Counted from the stretch's first letter, positions 5,334 through 14,001 are shown. The stretch: 14,256 nucleotides of DNA from Candidatus Hydrothermarchaeales archaeon (GCA_036444275.1 JAZGAD010000058.1:1-14256); one strand, 5' to 3'. Numbers and translations are program-made. Notes: generated from the sequence alone by a model not told the origin.

Positions 5334-6419
5334 CTATGGTTTGTGATATGCTACGGCTATTTGATGAGGTTCTGAACCGAGATTGATTGTAGCAGACAAA
5401 ATATTGGTGGAGGTATCGAGCACCAAGGTCTTGTTTGAAACCCCCATTAAGTTGACATAGATATACTCCCTACTGGGACTGATAGCCATATAGCCGGGTT
5501 TCTCACCCACCTTGATTGTGTCGATGACCTCGTTGGTAGAGGTATCCAGCACTGAGAGGGTGTTAGACCCTCGGTTAGCCACATAGACCAATCCACCATC
5601 ACGAGTGACTACTATACCATGGGGATCTTCACCCACGTATACCGCCGCCGTCTCCTCATCCGTAGAGGCATCTATAATCGATACGGTTCGAGACCCCGAG
5701 TTTGTCACATAGACATATCTATTGTCAGGGGAGACAGCAACATGGCTGGGCTCAAAACCCACACGTATAGTCGTCACTACCTCATTGGACGATGAATCGA
5801 TAACCGAGATAGAGCGCGATAATTTGTTTGCCACATAGACATACCTGCCGTTGGGGGCGGCTTCCACGTGATAGGGAACTTCGCCAACGTCTATCGTTGT
5901 AGTTACTTCATTGTCGGCTGTACTAATCACAGCTATCTTATTAGAAGACATCACGGTTGCATAGACGTATTCACCATCAGGAGAAACTGCCAAATGATGG
6001 GAATCCATTCCCACGGGTATCTGGGCGACCACCCTCTTGGTAGAGGTATCAACCACTGAAACATTTCCGGATTTTGTACTGCCTACATAGAGATACCTGC
6101 CATCAGGGGTAACAGCTACACCATGGGGATTTCCCCCGACAACTATTGTATCGATTAATTCGTTAGTAGATAAGTTGATCACCGAAACACTGTTAGAGGG
6201 GCCCATTGCAACGTAGGCGATTCCCCCTTGCTTTATCTTATCTATATCTACTTTTGACTTCTCTACCAGTCGATCTTTTCCATCATCTATTACCCCAACC
6301 TCTGGTTGAATGCATCCAGCAAGCACTGCCAGCATAACCAGAGCAACGAGCGATAAAACAAATGCTGTCCCGATTTTATGCGCTAAATCCTCGATCACTT
6401 CGCCAATCTCCTTACGCAT
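5334..6419 (-). CDS. YVTN/YncE-type seven-bladed beta-propeller lipoprotein
   Basis: Lipobox LAGC after a hydrophobic stretch; seven repeats of IxVGxxPxxxAVSPDGxxVYVxN; GGTGA RBS. Confidence 0.9.
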   Translation of the reverse strand: MRKEIGEVIEDLAHKIGTAFVLSLVALVMLAVLAGCIQPEVGVIDDGKDRLVEKSKVDIDKIKQGGIAYVAMGPSNSVSVINLSTNELIDTIVVGGNPHGVAVTPDGRYLYVGSTKSGNVSVVDTSTKRVVAQIPVGMDSHHLAVSPDGEYVYATVMSSNKIAVISTADNEVTTTIDVGEVPYHVEAAPNGRYVYVANKLSRSISVIDSSSNEVVTTIRVGFEPSHVAVSPDNRYVYVTNSGSRTVSIIDASTDEETAAVYVGEDPHGIVVTRDGGLVYVANRGSNTLSVLDTSTNEVIDTIKVGEKPGYMAISPSREYIYVNLMGVSNKTLVLDTSTNILSATINLGSEPHQIAVAYHKP

Positions 6420-6542: not shown

Positions 6543-7328
6543 TTAGTATCCCCTACTTTCCATGGGATTGAATATCGGTCTACGGGACGGTATAAACATC
6601 GGCACCTTGTCTTTGTACACTCGATAAGCGTATCCAAATCTTTCCTCCATTTCCTCTTCTTCCTTTTTCGCCAAGTAGTAATAGGCGGCTATTAATAGGG
6701 GTACCATGGCGATTGTAATGATGGTAGGCCACTGGATCAAGAAGCCGAAGATGATCGTTATTAGGCCCAGGTACTGCGGATGGCGGACATAGCTGTAAAC
6801 GCCCTCTGTAACCAGGCTACCCCCAGAGTAGTATACCTTCCGCCAGCCCTTATCCATAAGCAGCAAGCCCGCCAGTATCACAATAGAACTAGCTACCATT
6901 ACCAAAAACCATGCAACCCCCAAGTCTAGTATGCCCAGCTTCGTCAGGAAGACTGCAAAGAGATGCCCTGCCTCGTGTCCATAGGAGAGCTTCGTCCCAG
7001 AAACCGAGGAGATGAGGTAGATAGTCAGGGGAAAGCCATACATCTCGGTGAAGAGCGCGACGAGATATGCCTCGTACAACCCTAGGGAGCGCCACTCCCG
7101 CTTTTTCACCGGCATGAAAAAGCTGAGAACGAAGTAGGAGAACAGTAATATGCTGAAAATGCTCATGCCCCAGTGTCCATAAGCATAGTCCTGTGAGGGC
7201 GTCAGCTCCTCAAGTTCCTCTAGGAGCCCGGGTTTCAATAAGGAGGCCATAGAAGAGAGGATGACAAGGACTAGACCCGTTGCAAAGATAACTGTCACCA
7301 TATTTTGAATAGCCAGTCTGCGTTTCAT
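6543..7328 (-). CDS. Isoprenylcysteine carboxyl methyltransferase (ICMT/PEMT) family membrane protein
   Basis: LVTEGVYSYVRHPQYLG, EEEEMEERFG and YRVYKDKVPMFIP motifs. ALFTEMYGFPLTIY is characteristic of the subfamily often found in copper-resistance clusters. Confidence 0.88.
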   Translation of the reverse strand: MKRRLAIQNMVTVIFATGLVLVILSSMASLLKPGLLEELEELTPSQDYAYGHWGMSIFSILLFSYFVLSFFMPVKKREWRSLGLYEAYLVALFTEMYGFPLTIYLISSVSGTKLSYGHEAGHLFAVFLTKLGILDLGVAWFLVMVASSIVILAGLLLMDKGWRKVYYSGGSLVTEGVYSYVRHPQYLGLITIIFGFLIQWPTIITIAMVPLLIAAYYYLAKKEEEEMEERFGYAYRVYKDKVPMFIPSRRPIFNPMESRGY

Positions 7329-7473: not shown

Positions 7474-8319
7474 TCACACGCCCATCAAAATTGCTATGGA
7501 GTTGTGTATACCGTGGGGCAAACCGAGGACGAGGATGGCGAACTTGCCCAGCCAGTACCAGTTTGTCTCTCTGTCGTCTTCAAGAGAGTATAGCACCACG
7601 AGCACAAGAGCAACGTTAAAGATAAGGTAGAGATATGGCGAGGAGCTGAGCATCGCCTCTGTAAGCATCTGCTCTCCCCTATAGCCAAGGAGCGTTGCGC
7701 CGAGAGTAGCAGAGCTTGCCATGAGCATGATGCCGAAGATTATCAGGGCGTTTTCCGCGGTGTAAAGTCCCTTTATCCTTTTGGTGCCCAGGAGGATAAT
7801 GCCCGAGAGGATGACAGCGAAGACCCAGACCAAGGCGAATACCTCTGCATTTAGTGCGAGAGGCTGTCCCATGAAAATATTCCTTGCACCGCCTGATAAA
7901 ACCTCCGCAACCTTGGAAAGCACCAGGACTAAGCCCAATGCTGCGAGGGCACTCCCCATGCGAAATAGGGGACGGTCGTATTCCTTCCCGGCCATCCTCC
8001 GGCTGAGCCACAGGCATGCTGCGGCGATGGTGGTTAACATTATGTACAACCCCGGGGTCACGAGGTAGGCATGTACCCCTTGTCCCGTCGCCCGGTAGTA
8101 GGACTCAATCCCCCTAAGTTCGCCGCCCAGCACTAGAAATGGGACCAAGGCACGGAACAGCCTTGCGTCTATTTTTACCTCCAGGCGCTCCAAGAACCTC
8201 TCCACTCCGTACAGGCCGAGTAGCAAGAGCGCAGCATAGACGAGGGTGTTGTATATGTTGTAGCCCTCGCCGGTGTAAATTGGCTTTATGAAGTACTTGT
8301 ATAGGAATTCGCTTACCAT
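7474..8319 (-). CDS. DUF63 family archaeal membrane protein (divergent)
   Basis: N-terminal FLYKYFIKPI...GYNIYNTLVYA, ALVPFLVLGG.LR and LVTPGLY, plus C-terminal K.AILVLGL. Confidence 0.8.
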   Translation of the reverse strand: MVSEFLYKYFIKPIYTGEGYNIYNTLVYAALLLLGLYGVERFLERLEVKIDARLFRALVPFLVLGGELRGIESYYRATGQGVHAYLVTPGLYIMLTTIAAACLWLSRRMAGKEYDRPLFRMGSALAALGLVLVLSKVAEVLSGGARNIFMGQPLALNAEVFALVWVFAVILSGIILLGTKRIKGLYTAENALIIFGIMLMASSATLGATLLGYRGEQMLTEAMLSSSPYLYLIFNVALVLVVLYSLEDDRETNWYWLGKFAILVLGLPHGIHNSIAILMGV

Positions 8320-9289: not shown

Positions 9290-9757
9290 ATGAAAACGAA
9301 AAAAGTCTTGACGATTATCGCGCTTATCGCGCTTCTCTCCTTTGTGTATTATGCAGTAAATGTCACTCCAGTCATTAGCGATCAAAACTACACTTACCTA
9401 AGTGGATTCACATGGTATAATTCTTACGAGAAAGGTGCAGTGGTAGCTAAAGAACTGAATAAGCCCATGTTCGTCTACTTCTGGACTATCTGGTGTACTT
9501 ACTGCGAGAAGATGCAGGTCGAAGTATTTCCTTATGAGCCGACTGCAAAGATCATGAGGGAGGACTTCGTCCTCATCGCCGTGGATATGGACGTCAATAG
9601 AGAGGATGCAAACAGATTTAAAGTTCAGGCGCCTCCATACGAGCTTTTTCTTACGCCAGAAGGAGAGAGGATAACGGCGATCCCGGGTTATGTGCCCGAG
9701 GAGGAATTTTACAGGGTAATTAAAGAAATTAGAGACTTTTATTATGGTGGTAAATAA
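9290..9757 (+). CDS. Membrane-anchored extracytoplasmic thioredoxin-fold protein (SoxW-like; probable CcmG/ResA functional analogue)
   Basis: N-terminal TM helix, KPMFVYFWTIWCTYCEKM and IPGYVP. Its stop codon overlaps the start of the next gene (TAATG). Confidence 0.88.
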   Translation: MKTKKVLTIIALIALLSFVYYAVNVTPVISDQNYTYLSGFTWYNSYEKGAVVAKELNKPMFVYFWTIWCTYCEKMQVEVFPYEPTAKIMREDFVLIAVDMDVNREDANRFKVQAPPYELFLTPEGERITAIPGYVPEEEFYRVIKEIRDFYYGGK

Positions 9758-12700
9758 TGGTCCTTGGAGACACAGTACTTTATATAAGCGTAGGCCTGGC
9801 GTTGGCCGTATTTCTGGCCTTAATATACGGACAGAAAAAAAAGGTAGATACGTTCGACTGGCATATAAAATGGCTCATTAGGGTGTTTTCGGCCCTGCTT
9901 TTCTTTGATTTTGTTTTACTCTCTTATTACTTCGCAAAAAGCAACTTCACGATCAACTATGTGTGGGCGTTTTCGAGTAAGCATTACCCAATCTATTATA
10001 GGTTATCCGGGGCCCTTGCAGGGCAGCAAGGCACCCTCCTTTTCTGGGCAGCTCTCATTGCCATAGGCAGCCTGTGGCTCAACGAAACCAAAGGGAGCAC
10101 CTCCGATTTCGTAAAGAAGAGCCAGATTATAGTTGTTTTTCTAGTAGCATATTTTGCATTCTTGACTCTGCTTGATTCTCCATTCAAGACGATTTATCAG
10201 GTGGCTTCAGACCTGCCCGCAGGATTCGTACCCCTAGACGGCAATGGTCTAAATCCCCTCCTACTTGACCCCTGGATGGCCCTCCATCCATTCACCACCT
10301 TCTTGGCCTATGCCGGGACCACTATACCCCTCGCAGGCGCTATTGTATATCTTCTCAATACCTTTAGAGGAGTGGGTGAAAAGGTAGAAGATAGGATGTG
10401 GGTGTCCAAGGGCATGCAGTGGCTTCGCGTCTCTTGGCTATTCGCTACGATGTCCATGGCCATGGGGGGTTTGTGGGCCTACAAATCTCTCGGCTGGGGG
10501 GGCTTCTGGGCCTGGGACCCAGTAGAGACAGCAATGTTCCTCCCTTGGTTGATGCTCACCGCTGCTATTCATACAGTCGTGGAGCACAGGAGGGACAGGG
10601 AAAAATACAACATCCTCGCCCCAATCTTGGTCTCCTTCTCCTTCGCCCTTGTGATATATGCCACCATGGTGACAAGGAGCGGGATTTTTGAATCCGTACA
10701 CTCATTTATCGCAGGCGATGTAGGAAAATACATCATAGTGCTGACAGCAGTCTCCTTTGCCATACCTTTAGTATTGGGCGTGATAAAATATCTAAAAACA
10801 GAAACCTTGGAAAGAGAAGAAGAGTCAATAGTGAATAGGACAAATATCTTCTACGCCGCGATACTGGTCTTCTTGATAATGACGTTCATCCCGTTTTTCG
10901 GGGTAACATACCCGCCCATCATCAAGCTGTTGACCACAAAGAAACACGCGGTCACCGCACAGTTCTTCAACATCTGGATTTATCCATTCTTTATCCTGAT
11001 GCTGCTTTTGATAGGCCTCGGCCTCCAGTACAGGCCTTCCAACAGAAAGCGCGCAGTATCCGACTTCCTCCTCTTCTCTGGTCTTACAGTCGTTGTAAGT
11101 TTAATAAAACCCAACGAATATTTCAACATCGTTGATTACACCGCGATAGTCGGTCCTTCAAAGCCTTTGCTCTATCGTATCATAGGCTCTATCTCTGCCC
11201 TCACCGTTGTACCCCCTTCTATATACATCGTTTATGTAGCGGTGGATAGATGGAAATCAAGGATCTCTCCGTTTACCACGCGAAACTCCAAGATCAAGGA
11301 ACTGGGAATCCTCACGATCCACATAGGGGTTGTATTGGTAAGCCTCGGGATAGTATTTGCCAGCCTTTTCGGCTCAAATTTCTCGGTGACTTTAAATGTC
11401 AACGATATAGGGAAGATAACGAACATTGCTCCGGCCCAAGTGCACGAAGGGTTCGGGAGGCTCGGGACATGGGGTGTGCACGAAGGCGAGGGAACGAGCC
11501 CCTACTCCGTCCAGCTGCTGGATTACAAAGAGATTGAAGACTACGGCGCTGGAGAAAAAGAGGAGAGAGCCCCTCCTCCCGGGATCGGTATATCGGAATT
11601 CTACAACGAATTGGCAACCGGCAATTTTAAAGATACATACACCGTTCGAGGCTTCATCGGCGATGCCATAAACGTCGGCAAATATACCTACATCAAGCTC
11701 GTTGAAGGTGAAAAGGAGCTGTGGCTCGCCATTGGTGGACCGGAGGTTCGTAGAAATATCAATATAGTGGCAACTGGTTCGGCTATGTTCAACTTTCTAA
11801 GCCCCTCCCTCAATAGGACCTTTGATGTAATAATCTTCTCAAATCATTTGGAAGAATATCGGCCTGATGCTGGCGGTAGTCCATACAAGACCACTCAGCA
11901 GGTGAAACTCGCTATTTATAAACATAATGGAAAGATAGGGGAAGGCGTCGCAAAGCTTGAAACCTACGAAAATGGTGACGCGAGGAGGGCGCTAATCGAT
12001 ATGAGCCTTGTAAGGGACGTCTTCGTGATATTCGATGGCCTTGGGCCTGGGGGCGCAATACCGTTGACGGTGAAATTAAAACCCCTTATGAATGAGATCT
12101 GGCTTGGTGTAATGCTCTTCATCGCGGGCATTCTCATGACCATCTTTACGGATGCGAAGGGCTTTGCCGACCTCAAACAGGAGATAGTGTTCCAAGACCT
12201 TTGCTGTGGCTGTGGCGGTTGCGCAGCAGTATGCCCGGAGAAGGCAGTGAGGGTGGATGAGTTCCCAAAGCTCATTGGGGAATGCACGGACTGTAGCTAT
12301 TGCCTCCTTCAATGCCCCCGCAGGTCCTTTGATCCAAAAGGAGTGGAGAAAAAGATTCACGGCGAAGTGAGCAAAGACCTGCTCGGCCATACTGAGGTGA
12401 GGGTAGGAGCAAGGGGCACAGATCCAGATATACGAAAAGGTGCTCAGGACGGGGCCTTCGTAACCACCTTATTAAAATATGCATTGGAGAAAGGCATCAT
12501 CGACGGCGCATTAGTTGCGGGTTCTGCAAAGGACTGGAGGCCCATGCCCATGCTCGTTACCTCTCCAGAGCAACTCGCAAAGACGGCTGGATCGAAGTAC
12601 ACCAATAGTTCGAATCTCTCGCCCCTTCTAAAGGCCAAGGAGAAGGGATTGAATAAGTTGGCCTTGGTAGGATTACCCTGCCAGATAGAGGGGCTGAAGA

Positions 12701-13254
12701 AGATGCAGCACTGCCCCATTGAAGACGTGGACCTCAAGGATAGGGTTGAATTCACAGTTGCCCTGTTCTGCAATGGTAGCTTCCTCTACGACGGGCTGAT
12801 GAGGGACCTCATCCAGAAGGAGTACTCCATTAACCTCAAAAAGATCAAGAAGATCAATATAAAGGGGAAAAACGTTATCGTCACCACAGACAAAGGAGAG
12901 GTAAAAATACCCCTGGAAAAGGCCAATGAGCACGAACGAGAAGGATGCAAAGTATGTCACGACTTCACCTCTCGCTTATCCGATTTCTCGGCTGGCTCTG
13001 TGGGTACCCCCGACGGATACACTACCGTCCTCGCCAGGACAAAGAAGGCAGCCGCTTTGTTGTACAAAATGGAGGAGGAAGGGGTGATAGAGACGATTAA
13101 AAATATAGACGCCAGTGCAATAGAGAGACTGCAGAAAGCCAAGGGGAGGAGAGCTGTTGAGATGGTCGAAAAAAGGATGAAGGAAGGAGCCCCCCTAGCC
13201 ATAAAAATACCCCAACTTCTAGAGGAACAGTATGAAATTAAAAATCTTGATTGA
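9757..13254 (+). CDS. ccmF: Cytochrome c heme lyase CcmF fused to a 2x[4Fe-4S] ferredoxin and F420 hydrogenase/dehydrogenase beta (FrhB/FpoF-like) domain
   Basis: aa ~1-800: QQGTLLFW, GNGLNPLL, ALHP, WWD motif WGGFWAWDPVETA, AAIH, TRSG...SVHSF, IHIGV and VKLKPLMNEIWLG. aa ~802-1165: CCGCGGCAAVCP, CTDCSYCLLQCPR, AQDG, GSKY, VGLPCQ, ALFC and CKVCHDF...SAGSVG.PDGY. Confidence 0.92.
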   Translation: MVLGDTVLYISVGLALAVFLALIYGQKKKVDTFDWHIKWLIRVFSALLFFDFVLLSYYFAKSNFTINYVWAFSSKHYPIYYRLSGALAGQQGTLLFWAALIAIGSLWLNETKGSTSDFVKKSQIIVVFLVAYFAFLTLLDSPFKTIYQVASDLPAGFVPLDGNGLNPLLLDPWMALHPFTTFLAYAGTTIPLAGAIVYLLNTFRGVGEKVEDRMWVSKGMQWLRVSWLFATMSMAMGGLWAYKSLGWGGFWAWDPVETAMFLPWLMLTAAIHTVVEHRRDREKYNILAPILVSFSFALVIYATMVTRSGIFESVHSFIAGDVGKYIIVLTAVSFAIPLVLGVIKYLKTETLEREEESIVNRTNIFYAAILVFLIMTFIPFFGVTYPPIIKLLTTKKHAVTAQFFNIWIYPFFILMLLLIGLGLQYRPSNRKRAVSDFLLFSGLTVVVSLIKPNEYFNIVDYTAIVGPSKPLLYRIIGSISALTVVPPSIYIVYVAVDRWKSRISPFTTRNSKIKELGILTIHIGVVLVSLGIVFASLFGSNFSVTLNVNDIGKITNIAPAQVHEGFGRLGTWGVHEGEGTSPYSVQLLDYKEIEDYGAGEKEERAPPPGIGISEFYNELATGNFKDTYTVRGFIGDAINVGKYTYIKLVEGEKELWLAIGGPEVRRNINIVATGSAMFNFLSPSLNRTFDVIIFSNHLEEYRPDAGGSPYKTTQQVKLAIYKHNGKIGEGVAKLETYENGDARRALIDMSLVRDVFVIFDGLGPGGAIPLTVKLKPLMNEIWLGVMLFIAGILMTIFTDAKGFADLKQEIVFQDLCCGCGGCAAVCPEKAVRVDEFPKLIGECTDCSYCLLQCPRRSFDPKGVEKKIHGEVSKDLLGHTEVRVGARGTDPDIRKGAQDGAFVTTLLKYALEKGIIDGALVAGSAKDWRPMPMLVTSPEQLAKTAGSKYTNSSNLSPLLKAKEKGLNKLALVGLPCQIEGLKKMQHCPIEDVDLKDRVEFTVALFCNGSFLYDGLMRDLIQKEYSINLKKIKKINIKGKNVIVTTDKGEVKIPLEKANEHEREGCKVCHDFTSRLSDFSAGSVGTPDGYTTVLARTKKAAALLYKMEEEGVIETIKNIDASAIERLQKAKGRRAVEMVEKRMKEGAPLAIKIPQLLEEQYEIKNLD

Positions 13255-13275: not shown

Positions 13276-14001
13276 ATGATAGAACCCACATTGATTTTGG
13301 CATTTTTGTCAGGGGTCTTGACGGTGGCTACACCCTGCATAATCCCCATCCTACCTCCAATGCTCGCAGGCTCTATCGGGCATAGGTTGAGACCTTTGTT
13401 CATAGTTCTGGGTAGCTCTGTCACTTTCACCCTGATGGGTGGTCTCTTCTCCCTTATAGGAATTGCATCCGGAGTGAGTGGTGAGACGCTAAGATTCCTT
13501 TTTATAGCAGCCATCATCGCCTTCGGTGCGGTCATGGTGGACGATGAAATAAACGAGGTCTACGTGAGATACTCCTCAAAACTCACCAACAGGTTGTATC
13601 ACGCTCTGCACAGAAGAGGTAATATCTCAGTGGATGAACATCCTCTACTCAGCGCCTTCATCTTAGGCATGGCCCTAGGCATAGTCTGGATACCCTGTGT
13701 TGGTCCAATACTCGGCTCCGTACTGGCGTACGCCACGATGCAGGGGAATCTTGCCGGTGGTTCATTATTACTCCTCGCATATGCAGTTGGGCTTGGAATC
13801 CCTATGCTTGCAATAGCCTATGGTGGAAAATACACTTCAGAGAAGATCGAATGGACAAAGAGGAATTCATACTTGATAAAAAGGATTGCCGGCTGGGTTT
13901 TGATACTGACTGGAGTTGCCATGATATTCGGAATAGATAAATTTTTGCAGCAGAGTCTTCTCCCTTACTTCCCCGAGTTGGAAACAAGATTGTTACTTTA
14001 G
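13276..14001 (+). CDS. ccdA: Cytochrome c biogenesis protein CcdA
   Basis: AFLSGVLTVATPCIIPILP and GIVWIPCVGPILGSVL motifs, six TM helices, GGAGG RBS. Confidence 0.93.
   Translation: MIEPTLILAFLSGVLTVATPCIIPILPPMLAGSIGHRLRPLFIVLGSSVTFTLMGGLFSLIGIASGVSGETLRFLFIAAIIAFGAVMVDDEINEVYVRYSSKLTNRLYHALHRRGNISVDEHPLLSAFILGMALGIVWIPCVGPILGSVLAYATMQGNLAGGSLLLLAYAVGLGIPMLAIAYGGKYTSEKIEWTKRNSYLIKRIAGWVLILTGVAMIFGIDKFLQQSLLPYFPELETRLLL

Follow-up and report, generated by a model that had tools for sequence, protein, structure and literature searches.

An uncultured deep-sea archaeon of the Candidatus Hydrothermarchaeales encodes the haem lyase CcmF and an F420/iron-sulfur module as one protein. To our knowledge, the source of CcmF's electrons has never been identified, and this fusion points to where they may come from. 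The path that we consider probable, with real room for error, would run from F420H2 through FAD and three [4Fe-4S] clusters to the b-haem in the inner leaflet of the membrane, and from there through Trp227/Trp264 to the haem bound to CcmE. In coordinates of the window, by which the whole stretch of 14,256 nucleotides that was analysed is meant, the fusion and its parts are:

9757..13254, + strand: CcmF–ferredoxin–FrhB fusion ORF, 1165 aa, ATG start, no internal stops
9757..11376, + strand: CcmF transmembrane core, residues 1-540, TM1-TM14 (phmmer, Foldseek, AF2, conservation)
10495-10521, + strand: periplasmic WWD motif W247-P255, WGGFWAWDP, between TM6 and TM7
10570-10572, + strand: TM-His H272, on TM7
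11320-11322, + strand: TM-His H522, on TM14
within the CcmF core, + strand: P-His H177 and H315 and conduit Trp W227 and W264, residues read from the sequence
11374..12084, + strand: beta-rich large periplasmic domain of CcmF, residues 540-776, between TM14 and TM15 (DSSP strands)
12088..12153, + strand: TM15, residues 778-799 (AF2 helix; hydropathy peak 780-798)
12160..12390, + strand: ferredoxin domain, residues 802-878, with C816/819/822/826 and C843/846/849/853 for two predicted [4Fe-4S] clusters
12391..13188, + strand: FrhB-type F420 oxidoreductase domain, residues 879-1144, with C975, C1005, C1064, C1067, AQDG and GSKY; predicted FAD and [4Fe-4S]

The single uninterrupted reading frame at 9757-13254 that a first-pass annotation of this DNA had described is thus borne out, and every residue named there lies where it was placed: H177, H272, H315, H522 and WGGFWAWDP from W247 in the CcmF part, and, in the module, the CxxCxxCxxxC motifs from C816 and C843, the four cysteines C975, C1005, C1064 and C1067, AQDG at 896 and GSKY at 945. 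Its estimate of the junction, about nt 12160, was also right, since TM15 ends at nt 12153 and homology to stand-alone FrhB-like proteins sets in at G802. In Pfam terms the protein consists of Cytochrom_C_asm (residues 92-308, 93 bits) and CcmF_C (356-554), both scoring above their Pfam cut-offs, followed by Fer4 models at about 811-856, FrhB_FdhB_N (885-956, 85.5 bits) and FrhB_FdhB_C (966-1114, 142.8 bits).

To judge from sequence and model, residues 1-800 form a complete 15-helix haem lyase that has the WWD motif, the pair of conduit tryptophans and all four histidines of the haem sites. The solved Thermus CcmF, 6ZMQ, is matched by phmmer (E 5e-39) and is the top Foldseek match (E 1.4e-17, TMt 0.81), and H177, H272, H315 and H522 align with histidines of that structure. 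In an alignment of 95 CcmF rows, W227, W240, W253 and H272 are invariant, while H177, W264, H315 and H522, together with the WWD residues G248, G249, W251, D254 and P255, are at least 90% conserved. The NCBIfam CcmF/NrfE model TIGR00353, whose cut-off is 569 bits, gives a score of 215, beside which it should be said that archaeal CcmFs are divergent. The AF2 model has 15 long transmembrane helices, with pLDDT mostly above 90 in the CcmF part; the periplasmic domain is also modelled with high pLDDT except at 564-575, and its matches to OB-folds are weak. In this model, loops on the same side of the membrane hold the WWD motif and the two P-His, and TM15 ends on the opposite side, which was assigned as cytoplasmic from the Lys/Arg-rich loops read from the sequence there. 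TM15 thus takes the chain from periplasm to cytoplasm, the fusion junction following directly, and the cytoplasmic C-terminus claimed in the first-pass annotation agrees with the 15 helices and with the periplasmic landmarks on their expected side. Unfused relatives stop a few residues past the helix equivalent to TM15. Measured from the end of the helix opposite the WWD side, H272 is seven residues into TM7 and H522 is 13 residues into TM14; both are predicted b-haem ligands, at the TM7 and TM14 positions published for Thermus. The accessible text of PMC10663686 places the transmembrane haem of CcmF in the inner leaflet, on TM7/TM14, with an Em of -147 mV.

Beyond TM15 there is essentially no linker: homology to stand-alone proteins begins three residues after the helix, so the partner-contacting ferredoxin end of the module would be held at the membrane face. 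The eight ferredoxin cysteines are at least 90% conserved in a 60-row alignment of modules, and C975, C1005, C1064 and C1067, which we take, in line with the first-pass annotation and with FrhB structures, to be the FrhB cluster ligands, are invariant in it. The ferredoxin domain, defined after the accessible text of PMC11493965, is matched in alignments by residues 4-83 of 8RIU_B and by the N-terminal ends of Fsr and 9TN7; its pLDDT in the AF2 model is below 50. The best matches of the module are F420 enzymes throughout, with E-values of 1e-49 to 1e-58, and among solved F420-dependent enzymes they include 9TN7_A (2.4e-58), 3ZFS_C (FrhB, 6e-52), 8RIU_B (2.5e-51, residues 799-1139) and Fsr 7NP8 (2.8e-51). 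Curated NCBIfam models nevertheless score under their FrhB cut-offs (PRK09325, 252.6 vs 269; TIGR03289, 217.4 vs 331.5) and far under that of FpoF (NF040616, 136.6 vs 475). On sequence grounds, the fused module is best described as a relative of FrhB and FpoF rather than as either proper, and the tree groups it with proteins linked to cdhA. Binding of F420 and FAD, and oxidation of F420H2, are predicted from this homology and from the F420 genes of the genome.

The tree also bears on where the module came from. All nine fused modules of CcmF clades A and B (see below) form one clade (SH-aLRT 99) and have a single origin; this clade is sister to stand-alone FrhB-like proteins from the host's own family. 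A CdhA-like gene follows the stand-alone FrhB-like gene in 14 of 19 loci, and the product of this cdhA-adjacent gene is a homologue of the solved zeta subunit of an F420 reductase. The fused module is a duplicate of the gene for an FrhB-like F420-reductase subunit that adjoins the CO dehydrogenase gene cdhA in this phylum.

In the window, the fusion gene sits in an operon with genes of the thiol branch of cytochrome c maturation, a further DsbD-type gene and a cytochrome gene lying upstream:

9290..9757, + strand: membrane-anchored thioredoxin-like protein (CcmG/ResA-like), 155 aa, WCTYC at residue 69 (Pfam Thioredoxin_2/7)
13276..14001, + strand: CcdA (DsbD_TM family), 241 aa, Cys21 and Cys150 in P-C motifs (Pfam DsbD_TM/DsbD_2)
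346-1464, + strand: second DsbD_TM-type protein with a Cys-rich tail (Pfam, motif)
1468-2031, + strand: membrane-anchored monohaem cytochrome c, CLSCH at residue 65

The thioredoxin-like protein carries an N-terminal hydrophobic anchor, and the TAA stop of its gene overlaps the ATG of the fusion by one base (TAATG); in all 13 other loci examined, the gene immediately upstream of CcmF is a homologue of it. The ATG of ccdA stands 21 nt after the fusion stop and is preceded, 8 nt before, by GGAGG, and a ccdA homologue follows every fused gene for which the 3' end is available, four in all (in the window and in L040, L039 and L010). The monohaem cytochrome c may be one of the proteins that the maturation system serves. 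Elsewhere in the genome, CcmE is encoded at 3900-4328 of contig C37, adjoined by CcmC-like, ccmB-sized and ccmA-sized ORFs; the Pfam scan covered CcmE and CcmC, and ccmA and ccmB were assigned as ORFs of matching size. CcmH was not found in this 81%-complete genome, and the accessible text of PMC9012536 describes it as absent in most archaea. There are at least 12 candidate multihaem cytochromes, 12 ORFs having two or more CxxCH motifs and one having 38. The F420 biosynthesis genes that the first-pass annotation had proposed to look for are present, cofH, cofD and cofE scoring over curated cut-offs, and no quinone genes were clearly found in the same 81%-complete genome.

That the fusion might be an artefact, arising from a chimeric assembly, from a stop codon lost in one MAG or from a decaying gene, was suggested by a contig of only 14 kb in a MAG 81% complete and by the stretch being found in no RNA run, yet this explanation deserves almost no credence. 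Contigs from all four runs examined, each from a different study, cross the junction at nt 12157 with substitutions only and no indels (one run, X1, may be the source sample), which supports the junction that the first-pass annotation had wanted checked. CcmF is likewise joined to the module, or at least to its ferredoxin part, in nine other database proteins of 33-78% identity; seven of these contain FrhB, one is cut inside it and one (P0016) ends after the ferredoxin part. The cofactor ligands are all conserved. As far as sequence data go, an artefact is refuted.

Those fused relatives with a named source all come from Hydrothermarchaeota MAGs. Their CcmF parts form two clades, A and B, which unfused CcmFs separate, and the same architecture recurs in a third, distant lineage (P0031, 33-38% identity). 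A single clade of fused CcmFs is rejected by the AU test (p 2.5e-5), and this pattern speaks for the fusion having been maintained. The fusion occurs in only three of the 38 genomes of the phylum, one of which, G029, has two fused paralogues, and the host itself has, besides the fusion, an unfused paralogue of CcmF accompanied by a separate trx and ccdA; a fused donor is thus not required for CcmF in this lineage. Only three CcmF positions (V359, D436 and Y643) are common to both fused clades and rare in eight close unfused relatives, so there is no clear co-adapted docking surface.

Taken together, these features suggest a self-powered cytochrome c synthase whose CcmF part would act as a normal System I haem lyase. 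Its periplasmic WWD/P-His site would take haem from CcmE, while a stable b-haem would be held by H272 on TM7 and H522 on TM14 in the cytoplasmic half of the membrane. F420H2 would hand its electrons to the FAD of the FrhB domain, and they would then pass from the [4Fe-4S] cluster of that domain to the two ferredoxin clusters at the membrane face, on to the b-haem and, by way of Trp227 and Trp264, to the haem that CcmE supplies in the Fe(III) state. Reduction of this haem is thought to free it from CcmE and to permit thioether formation. The thioredoxin-like protein and CcdA would separately keep the CxxCH thiols of the apocytochrome reduced. With H522 13 residues into TM14, helix rise puts the haem iron perhaps 10-19 A below the surface, a depth that would be borderline for one tunnelling step. 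The first-pass annotation had proposed much the same wire, as one that would bypass the quinone pool, and its interpretation stands as regards the architecture, the cofactor motifs, the cytoplasmic C-terminus, the F420 genes and the retention of the fusion in relatives; we infer the wire itself, namely that F420 is the donor, that the module docks beneath the b-haem, and in which direction and to which endpoint the electrons flow. A cytoplasmic donor for CcmF is more plausible than the wording "using quinol" in that annotation implied.

Three other readings accept the fusion as real and differ in what the module does. The wire could be as proposed with a partner other than F420 at the flavin site, candidates being ferredoxin, NAD(P)H and other flavins or deazaflavins; alternatively, the module could serve as an Fe-S entry port only. 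The scores under the curated FrhB and FpoF cut-offs allow for this, as do the ferredoxin-dependent tetrapyrrole enzymes within the FrhB superfamily and P0016, which lacks FrhB and may be truncated. We nevertheless regard it as unlikely, given that one such tetrapyrrole enzyme, HCAR 5DQR, matches at E 2e-06 only, far behind the F420 enzymes, that the module nests in the cdhA-linked clade, whose solved homologue reduces F420, and that the genome has F420 synthesis genes.

It is quite unlikely that the module instead powers the thiol branch, with electrons from F420H2 reducing the CcdA/thioredoxin-like relay in place of cytoplasmic thioredoxin and thioredoxin reductase. This possibility, already raised in the first-pass annotation, draws on the thioredoxin-like gene and ccdA that flank the fusion gene and on the constancy of ccdA after fused genes, but unfused CcmFs are flanked by the same two genes, and the linkage is thus nothing peculiar to the fusion. 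Moreover, the module has no conserved spare Cys pair, since beyond the 12 ligands there are only C817 and C986, both replaced in orthologues such as P0002; Fe-S-to-disulfide chemistry needs an FTR- or Hdr-like site, and Pfam found none; and the fusion partner is CcmF, not CcdA. Very unlikely, finally, is a respiratory conduit, in which F420H2 oxidised inside the cell would send electrons out via the b-haem and a haem held by the WWD motif to cytochromes in the periplasm or outside the cell, the protein being an F420H2:cytochrome c oxidoreductase instead of, or besides, a lyase. The electron path would be identical to that of the lyase model, the genome is rich in multihaem cytochromes, and the unfused CcmF could take care of maturation. 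Against this, all lyase signatures (WWD, both P-His) are kept, the operon is of the maturation type found with unfused CcmF, no cytochrome gene is consistently adjacent, and the two fused paralogues in G029 would be expected of client-specialised lyases.

Neither the CcmF–F420-module fusion nor the proposed wire was described in the literature searched, in agreement with the first-pass annotation, which knew of no description. It may be, although we put this forward only tentatively, that throughout System I a soluble Fe-S or flavin protein of low potential, rather than quinol, charges the stable b-haem from the cytoplasm. The fusion would then be a natural marker of such a donor, and unfused archaeal CcmFs would use a stand-alone FrhB-like or ferredoxin protein in trans. 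On that view, no cytochrome c synthase before the one from Hydrothermarchaeota would have had its complete path, from the diffusible cofactor F420H2 to the substrate haem, in one polypeptide, and the entire route would be open to reconstitution.

When compared with known systems, the CcmF part resembles System I CcmF/NrfE (Thermus thermophilus 6ZMQ, E. coli) in its 15-TM fold, WWD motif, P-His1/2, TM-His1/2 and conduit Trp pair, and in working with ccmABCE, here encoded elsewhere in the genome. It differs in the 365-residue cytoplasmic redox module after TM15, in a periplasmic domain that is, at about 237 residues, much larger, in scoring below the curated NCBIfam CcmF/NrfE cut-offs and in that no CcmH was found in the genome. 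CcmF-CcmH fusions, found as Cytochrom_C_asm, CcmF_C and CcmH together in three of ten proteins scanned (P0061, P0122 and P0131), likewise extend CcmF C-terminally by a functional partner. CcmH, however, is a periplasmic thiol-redox partner and no electron-input module, and is uninformative on the haem reductant.

The closest parallels to the module, as far as the accessible text of PMC11493965 describes them, are the zeta subunit of the F420-reducing CO dehydrogenase (8RIU_B) and the formylmethanofuran dehydrogenase subunit FwdI (8RJA_E) of Ca. Ethanoperedens thermophilum, in which an N-terminal 2x[4Fe-4S] ferredoxin domain also precedes an FrhB-like domain with one [4Fe-4S] and FAD; in 8RIU, this three-cluster and FAD module wires the metal centres of its partner to F420. 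Those proteins are separate subunits that dock on soluble enzymes and reduce F420, whereas the present module is joined covalently to a haem lyase in the membrane and would be expected to oxidise F420H2. The ferredoxin and FrhB layout is shared, too, with FpoF/FqoF and with the N-terminal half of Fsr (7NP8), which oxidise F420H2 and feed the Fe-S chain of a partner, and in Fsr the module and the domain that accepts its electrons also form a single chain; the acceptor here, however, would be a membrane b-haem protein instead of a quinone/phenazine reductase or a sirohaem enzyme.

The fusion gene (window 9757-13254, plus strand) had been read in the first-pass annotation as one uninterrupted ORF joining a CcmF haem lyase to an F420H2-dehydrogenase-like module, and it is indeed a single frame of 1165 codons that opens with ATG and holds no internal stop. 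Pfam recognizes every part of this architecture in the one 1165-aa protein: Cytochrom_C_asm at residues 92-308, CcmF_C at 356-554, 4Fe-4S ferredoxin models at about 811-856, FrhB_FdhB_N at 885-956 and FrhB_FdhB_C at 966-1114. Among the NCBIfam models, those for CcmF/NrfE match residues 4-554, the FrhB model PRK09325 reaches 252.6 bits over residues 875-1144, slightly below its cut-off of 269, and the FpoF models score far below theirs over residues 809-1112. The residues listed in that annotation are also in place, namely H177, H272, H315, H522 and the WWD block from W247 in the CcmF half and, in the module, the CxxCxxCxxxC motifs at 816 and 843, AQDG at 896, GSKY at 945 and the cysteines C975, C1005, C1064 and C1067.

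Judged by its sequence, the CcmF half would be a complete haem lyase. It matches Thermus thermophilus CcmF (6ZMQ) with an E-value of 5e-39, all four histidines being paired, and in a 95-row CcmF alignment W227, W240, W253 and H272 are invariant, with H177, W264, H315 and H522 conserved in at least 90% of the rows. The AF2 model of the full-length protein (overall pLDDT 81.3, residues 1-800 mostly above 90) contains 15 long helices, and a structural search with it returns 6ZMQ as the top match (TMt 0.81). The helix order in this model places the WWD loop (246-254), H177 and H315 on the same side of the membrane; H272 lies 7 residues and H522 13 residues from those ends of TM7 (255-279) and TM14 (509-537), respectively, that are opposite the WWD side, where TM15 (778-799) also leaves the membrane. 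Since the loops opposite the WWD side are rich in Lys/Arg, that side is taken to be the cytoplasm. This topology agrees with the CcmF layout in the consulted sections of PMC10663686 and PMC10746174, in which the protein spans the membrane 15 times and TM7 and TM14 hold a haem within the inner leaflet; the potential of that haem is given as -147 mV (PMC10663686). The equivalents of the conduit tryptophans, assigned by their spacing of 8 and 45 residues upstream of the first TM histidine, are W264 and W227, both conserved. Between TM14 and TM15, residues 540-776 (window 11374-12084) are confidently predicted to form an all-beta periplasmic domain far bigger than its counterpart in Thermus CcmF, part of which gives weak OB-fold matches to anticodon-binding domains of aminoacyl-tRNA synthetases.

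The C-terminal 365 residues are assigned to a putative F420-oxidoreductase module with a ferredoxin-plus-FrhB layout. The best match among solved proteins is 9TN7_A (E 2.4e-58), followed by FrhB 3ZFS_C (6e-52), 8RIU_B (2.5e-51) and Fsr 7NP8 (2.8e-51), with the chlorophyll enzyme HCAR at only 2e-06. The consulted part of PMC11493965 describes 8RIU_B as the zeta subunit of a CO dehydrogenase that reduces F420, with two [4Fe-4S] clusters in residues 1-83 and one [4Fe-4S] cluster plus FAD in residues 84-349, and F420-reductase activity was measured for the complex. Across a 60-row module alignment none of the four FrhB cysteines varies, and each of the eight in the ferredoxin domain is kept in at least 90% of the rows. 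Homology to stand-alone modules starts at G802, three residues past TM15, and so no linker separates the ferredoxin end of the module from the membrane face. The AF2 model is poor here (pLDDT below 50 for the ferredoxin domain, 40-87 for the FrhB part), because only eight fused alignment rows cover the module. A complex prediction with CcmF 1-560, module 801-1165, haem and three 4Fe-4S clusters scored 0.08 against a mark of 0.32 and, run without controls, gives no answer on docking.

The junction at nt 12157, for which read support had been asked, is bridged with substitutions only by contigs of all four runs, from four studies; these are assembled contigs, so that depth carries no meaning, one run is possibly the source sample, and no RNA run is listed among those that contain the stretch. 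A word-indexed protein search with residues 790-1165, restricted to targets 640-2039 aa long, found 11 proteins; eight of them (the query and the database proteins P0002-P0008) have CcmF plus FrhB domains, with 59-68% identity in the module, and the other three are unrelated FrhB fusions. An exhaustive search against 1.84 billion representatives yielded 9894 matches; the best 150 were inspected and ten of these, chosen mainly by length, scanned with Pfam, and both halves were seen in three of the best 150 (P0007, P0016 and P0031). Where source names are given, the fused proteins come from Candidatus Hydrothermarchaeales/Hydrothermarchaeota. P0031 (1132 aa), from a Hydrothermarchaeota MAG, has a CcmF core only 38% identical to that of the window protein and constitutes a third fused lineage. 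Full fusions occur in three of 38 species-level genomes of the phylum (the window's genome, G029 with two genes, and G030), among which no close representatives of the P0016 and P0031 lineages were found. P0016, an 843-aa protein from a 10.6-kb ENA metagenome contig, has a CcmF that ends right after the second ferredoxin motif and lacks the FrhB domain; either the gene call is truncated or this is a form made of CcmF and ferredoxin only. Relatives keep both halves in one gene (P0002-P0008, P0031 and the genes of G029 and G030), and the fusion is real and maintained as far as these sequence records reach.

In a quick IQ-TREE analysis of the CcmF domain (30 rows), the window protein, G029 C17, P0002 and P0007 form clade A (support 100), sister to the unfused CcmF of the phylum genome G014 (support 95), and P0004, P0005, G029 C140, G030 C29 and P0016 form clade B (support 100), with unfused CcmFs falling between the two. 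An AU test rejects a single fused clade (p 2.5e-5), the tested group having been named after the tree was seen. When the modules themselves are compared (tree of 40 rows), the nine fused ones from clades A and B all group together with support 99, nested with stand-alone FrhB-like proteins from the window's own family in an 11-row clade (support 96). There is one module clade yet two CcmF clades, and the module of clades A and B was therefore captured once and then either moved between CcmF paralogues or was repeatedly lost. The P0031 module falls outside the clade A and B group, on a long branch; this is compatible with, without securing, an independent fusion in that lineage.

Three genes make up the unit to which the fusion belongs, with the fusion in second place. 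The first encodes a thioredoxin-like protein that has a membrane anchor and a WCTYC site, and the stop codon of this gene overlaps the fusion start as TAATG; the third encodes CcdA and has GGAGG ahead of its ATG. The thioredoxin-like gene stands ahead of CcmF in 13 of 13 other loci, and ccdA follows CcmF in six of them, including every fused gene with a known 3' end. Elsewhere in the window, positions 346-2031 hold a 372-aa DsbD_TM-type membrane protein whose C-terminal tail is rich in Cys (CMEC, CNEC plus other cysteines), and a monohaem cytochrome c that is anchored to the membrane at its C-terminus starts 4 nt after that gene. Three further neighbours, assigned by Pfam only, are unrelated to the fusion:

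5334-6419, minus strand: YNCE / cytochrome d1-like beta-propeller
6543-7328, minus strand: ICMT/PEMT-type methyltransferase
7474-8319, minus strand: DUF63 membrane protein

At 1.49 Mb in 61 contigs and 81% completeness, the window's genome encodes a second CcmF, an unfused paralogue of 52% identity that has a trx and a ccdA of its own, and a ccmE adjoined by ccmC-, ccmB- and ccmA-like ORFs, beside which lies a divergently oriented gene for a protein with DUF362 and 4Fe-4S domains (G000:C37:2809-3903, L020:368-1462). CcmH was not found in this 81% complete genome. F420 synthesis, on which the proposed donor depended, is represented by cofH, cofD and cofE, all above their cut-offs. A search for quinone genes in the same genome gave no MqnA/D (PF02621), a MenA match of 76 bits against a cut-off of 102 and, for MqnC, only the cofH/cofG genes below cut-off. 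The organism carries a heavy multihaem cytochrome load, with 12 ORFs of at least two CxxCH motifs, one of them with 38; the latter, of at least 2918 aa (G000:C48:1-8755, minus strand), runs past the contig end, and the remaining eleven have 2-8 motifs each. On the same contig lies a Nuo/Fpo-like complex I gene cluster (G000:C48:18915-30771), in which a 558-aa ORF (C48:22662-24338, L007:841-2517) fuses several 4Fe-4S domains to a full FrhB_N/FrhB_C module; it is read as occupying the putative NuoI position and looks like a second F420 input module fused to a membrane partner. A 368-aa ORF (G000:C33:46092-47198, L008:985-2091, minus strand), in which module residues 167-364 precede 1-154, looks like a circularly permuted FrhB-like protein.

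Taken together, the best-supported reading is a built-in electron wire. Electrons would pass from F420H2, with a potential of about -340 mV, through FAD and the FrhB [4Fe-4S] cluster to the two ferredoxin [4Fe-4S] clusters at the membrane face, and from there to the inner-leaflet b-haem and, via W227 and W264, to the Fe(III) haem carried by CcmE at the WWD site. The parts, their order, conservation and sidedness and the availability of F420 are all evident; the ferredoxin domain would have to dock under the b-haem within tunnelling distance, F420H2 would be the donor and the substrate haem the endpoint. The module scores below the curated FrhB and FpoF cut-offs, which limits this reading. Only V359, D436 and Y643 set fused apart from close unfused CcmF proteins, and three such positions are too few to point to a co-adapted docking surface on the cytoplasmic face. 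Since an unfused CcmF is kept and the full fusion was not seen in 35 of the 38 genomes, the fusion is optional here, not required.

Other readings of the protein fit less well. An artefact is excluded as far as sequence can go. The module might feed the CcdA/thioredoxin relay instead of the haem, but unfused CcmF is flanked by genes of the same kind and the module has no conserved additional cysteine pair. A donor other than F420 is disfavoured by the database matches and the module tree, while the lyase signatures and the operon count against the fusion being a respiratory conduit.

Two known families are met here in a new join, with direct bearing on an open mechanistic question. Besides its lyase role, a haem reductase function has been proposed for CcmF. 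A conserved fusion to an F420/Fe-S module argues for electron entry from the cytoplasmic side, names a concrete donor for one lineage and fits an organism so rich in multihaem cytochromes; as a single polypeptide, it would also be open to assays of F420H2-dependent b-haem reduction, of haem release from CcmE and of thioether formation, and to structure determination. According to the consulted part of a 2023 review (PMC10663686), it is unknown where the b-haem gets its electrons. In agreement with the first-pass annotation, which knew of no such architecture, no description of a CcmF-FrhB protein was found in the literature searched, and the fusion goes unmentioned in the consulted parts of PMC9012536, PMC10663686, PMC10746174, PMC11493965, PMC6759336, PMC6775978 and PMC4429474; supplementary gene tables of two Hydrothermarchaeota papers could list the gene. 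Where database records carry a name, P0008 is listed as 'cytochrome c biogenesis protein CcsA' and P0003, P0006 and P0031 as 'Coenzyme F420 hydrogenase/dehydrogenase, beta subunit C-terminal domain'.

As for the origin of the module, in 14 of 19 loci the gene directly downstream of its stand-alone sister is CdhA-like (Prismane/CO-dehydrogenase plus Fer4), which places the sister gene where a zeta-type F420 reductase would be expected. The closest stand-alone paralogue (G000:C33:15145-16791, L003:1450-3096; 372 aa, 63% identical to the fused module) is followed by a CdhB-like gene; such a gene was discarded as the usual neighbour, being found in only two of the loci compared (the window's genome and the phylum genome G021), and the CdhA-like gene is the consistent one. 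The module appears to have been copied from a CO dehydrogenase context onto a membrane haem protein, a case of the FrhB-type module serving anew as a plug-in port for electrons, and its stand-alone relatives suggest an F420-coupled CO dehydrogenase in Hydrothermarchaeota like that of Ca. Ethanoperedens.
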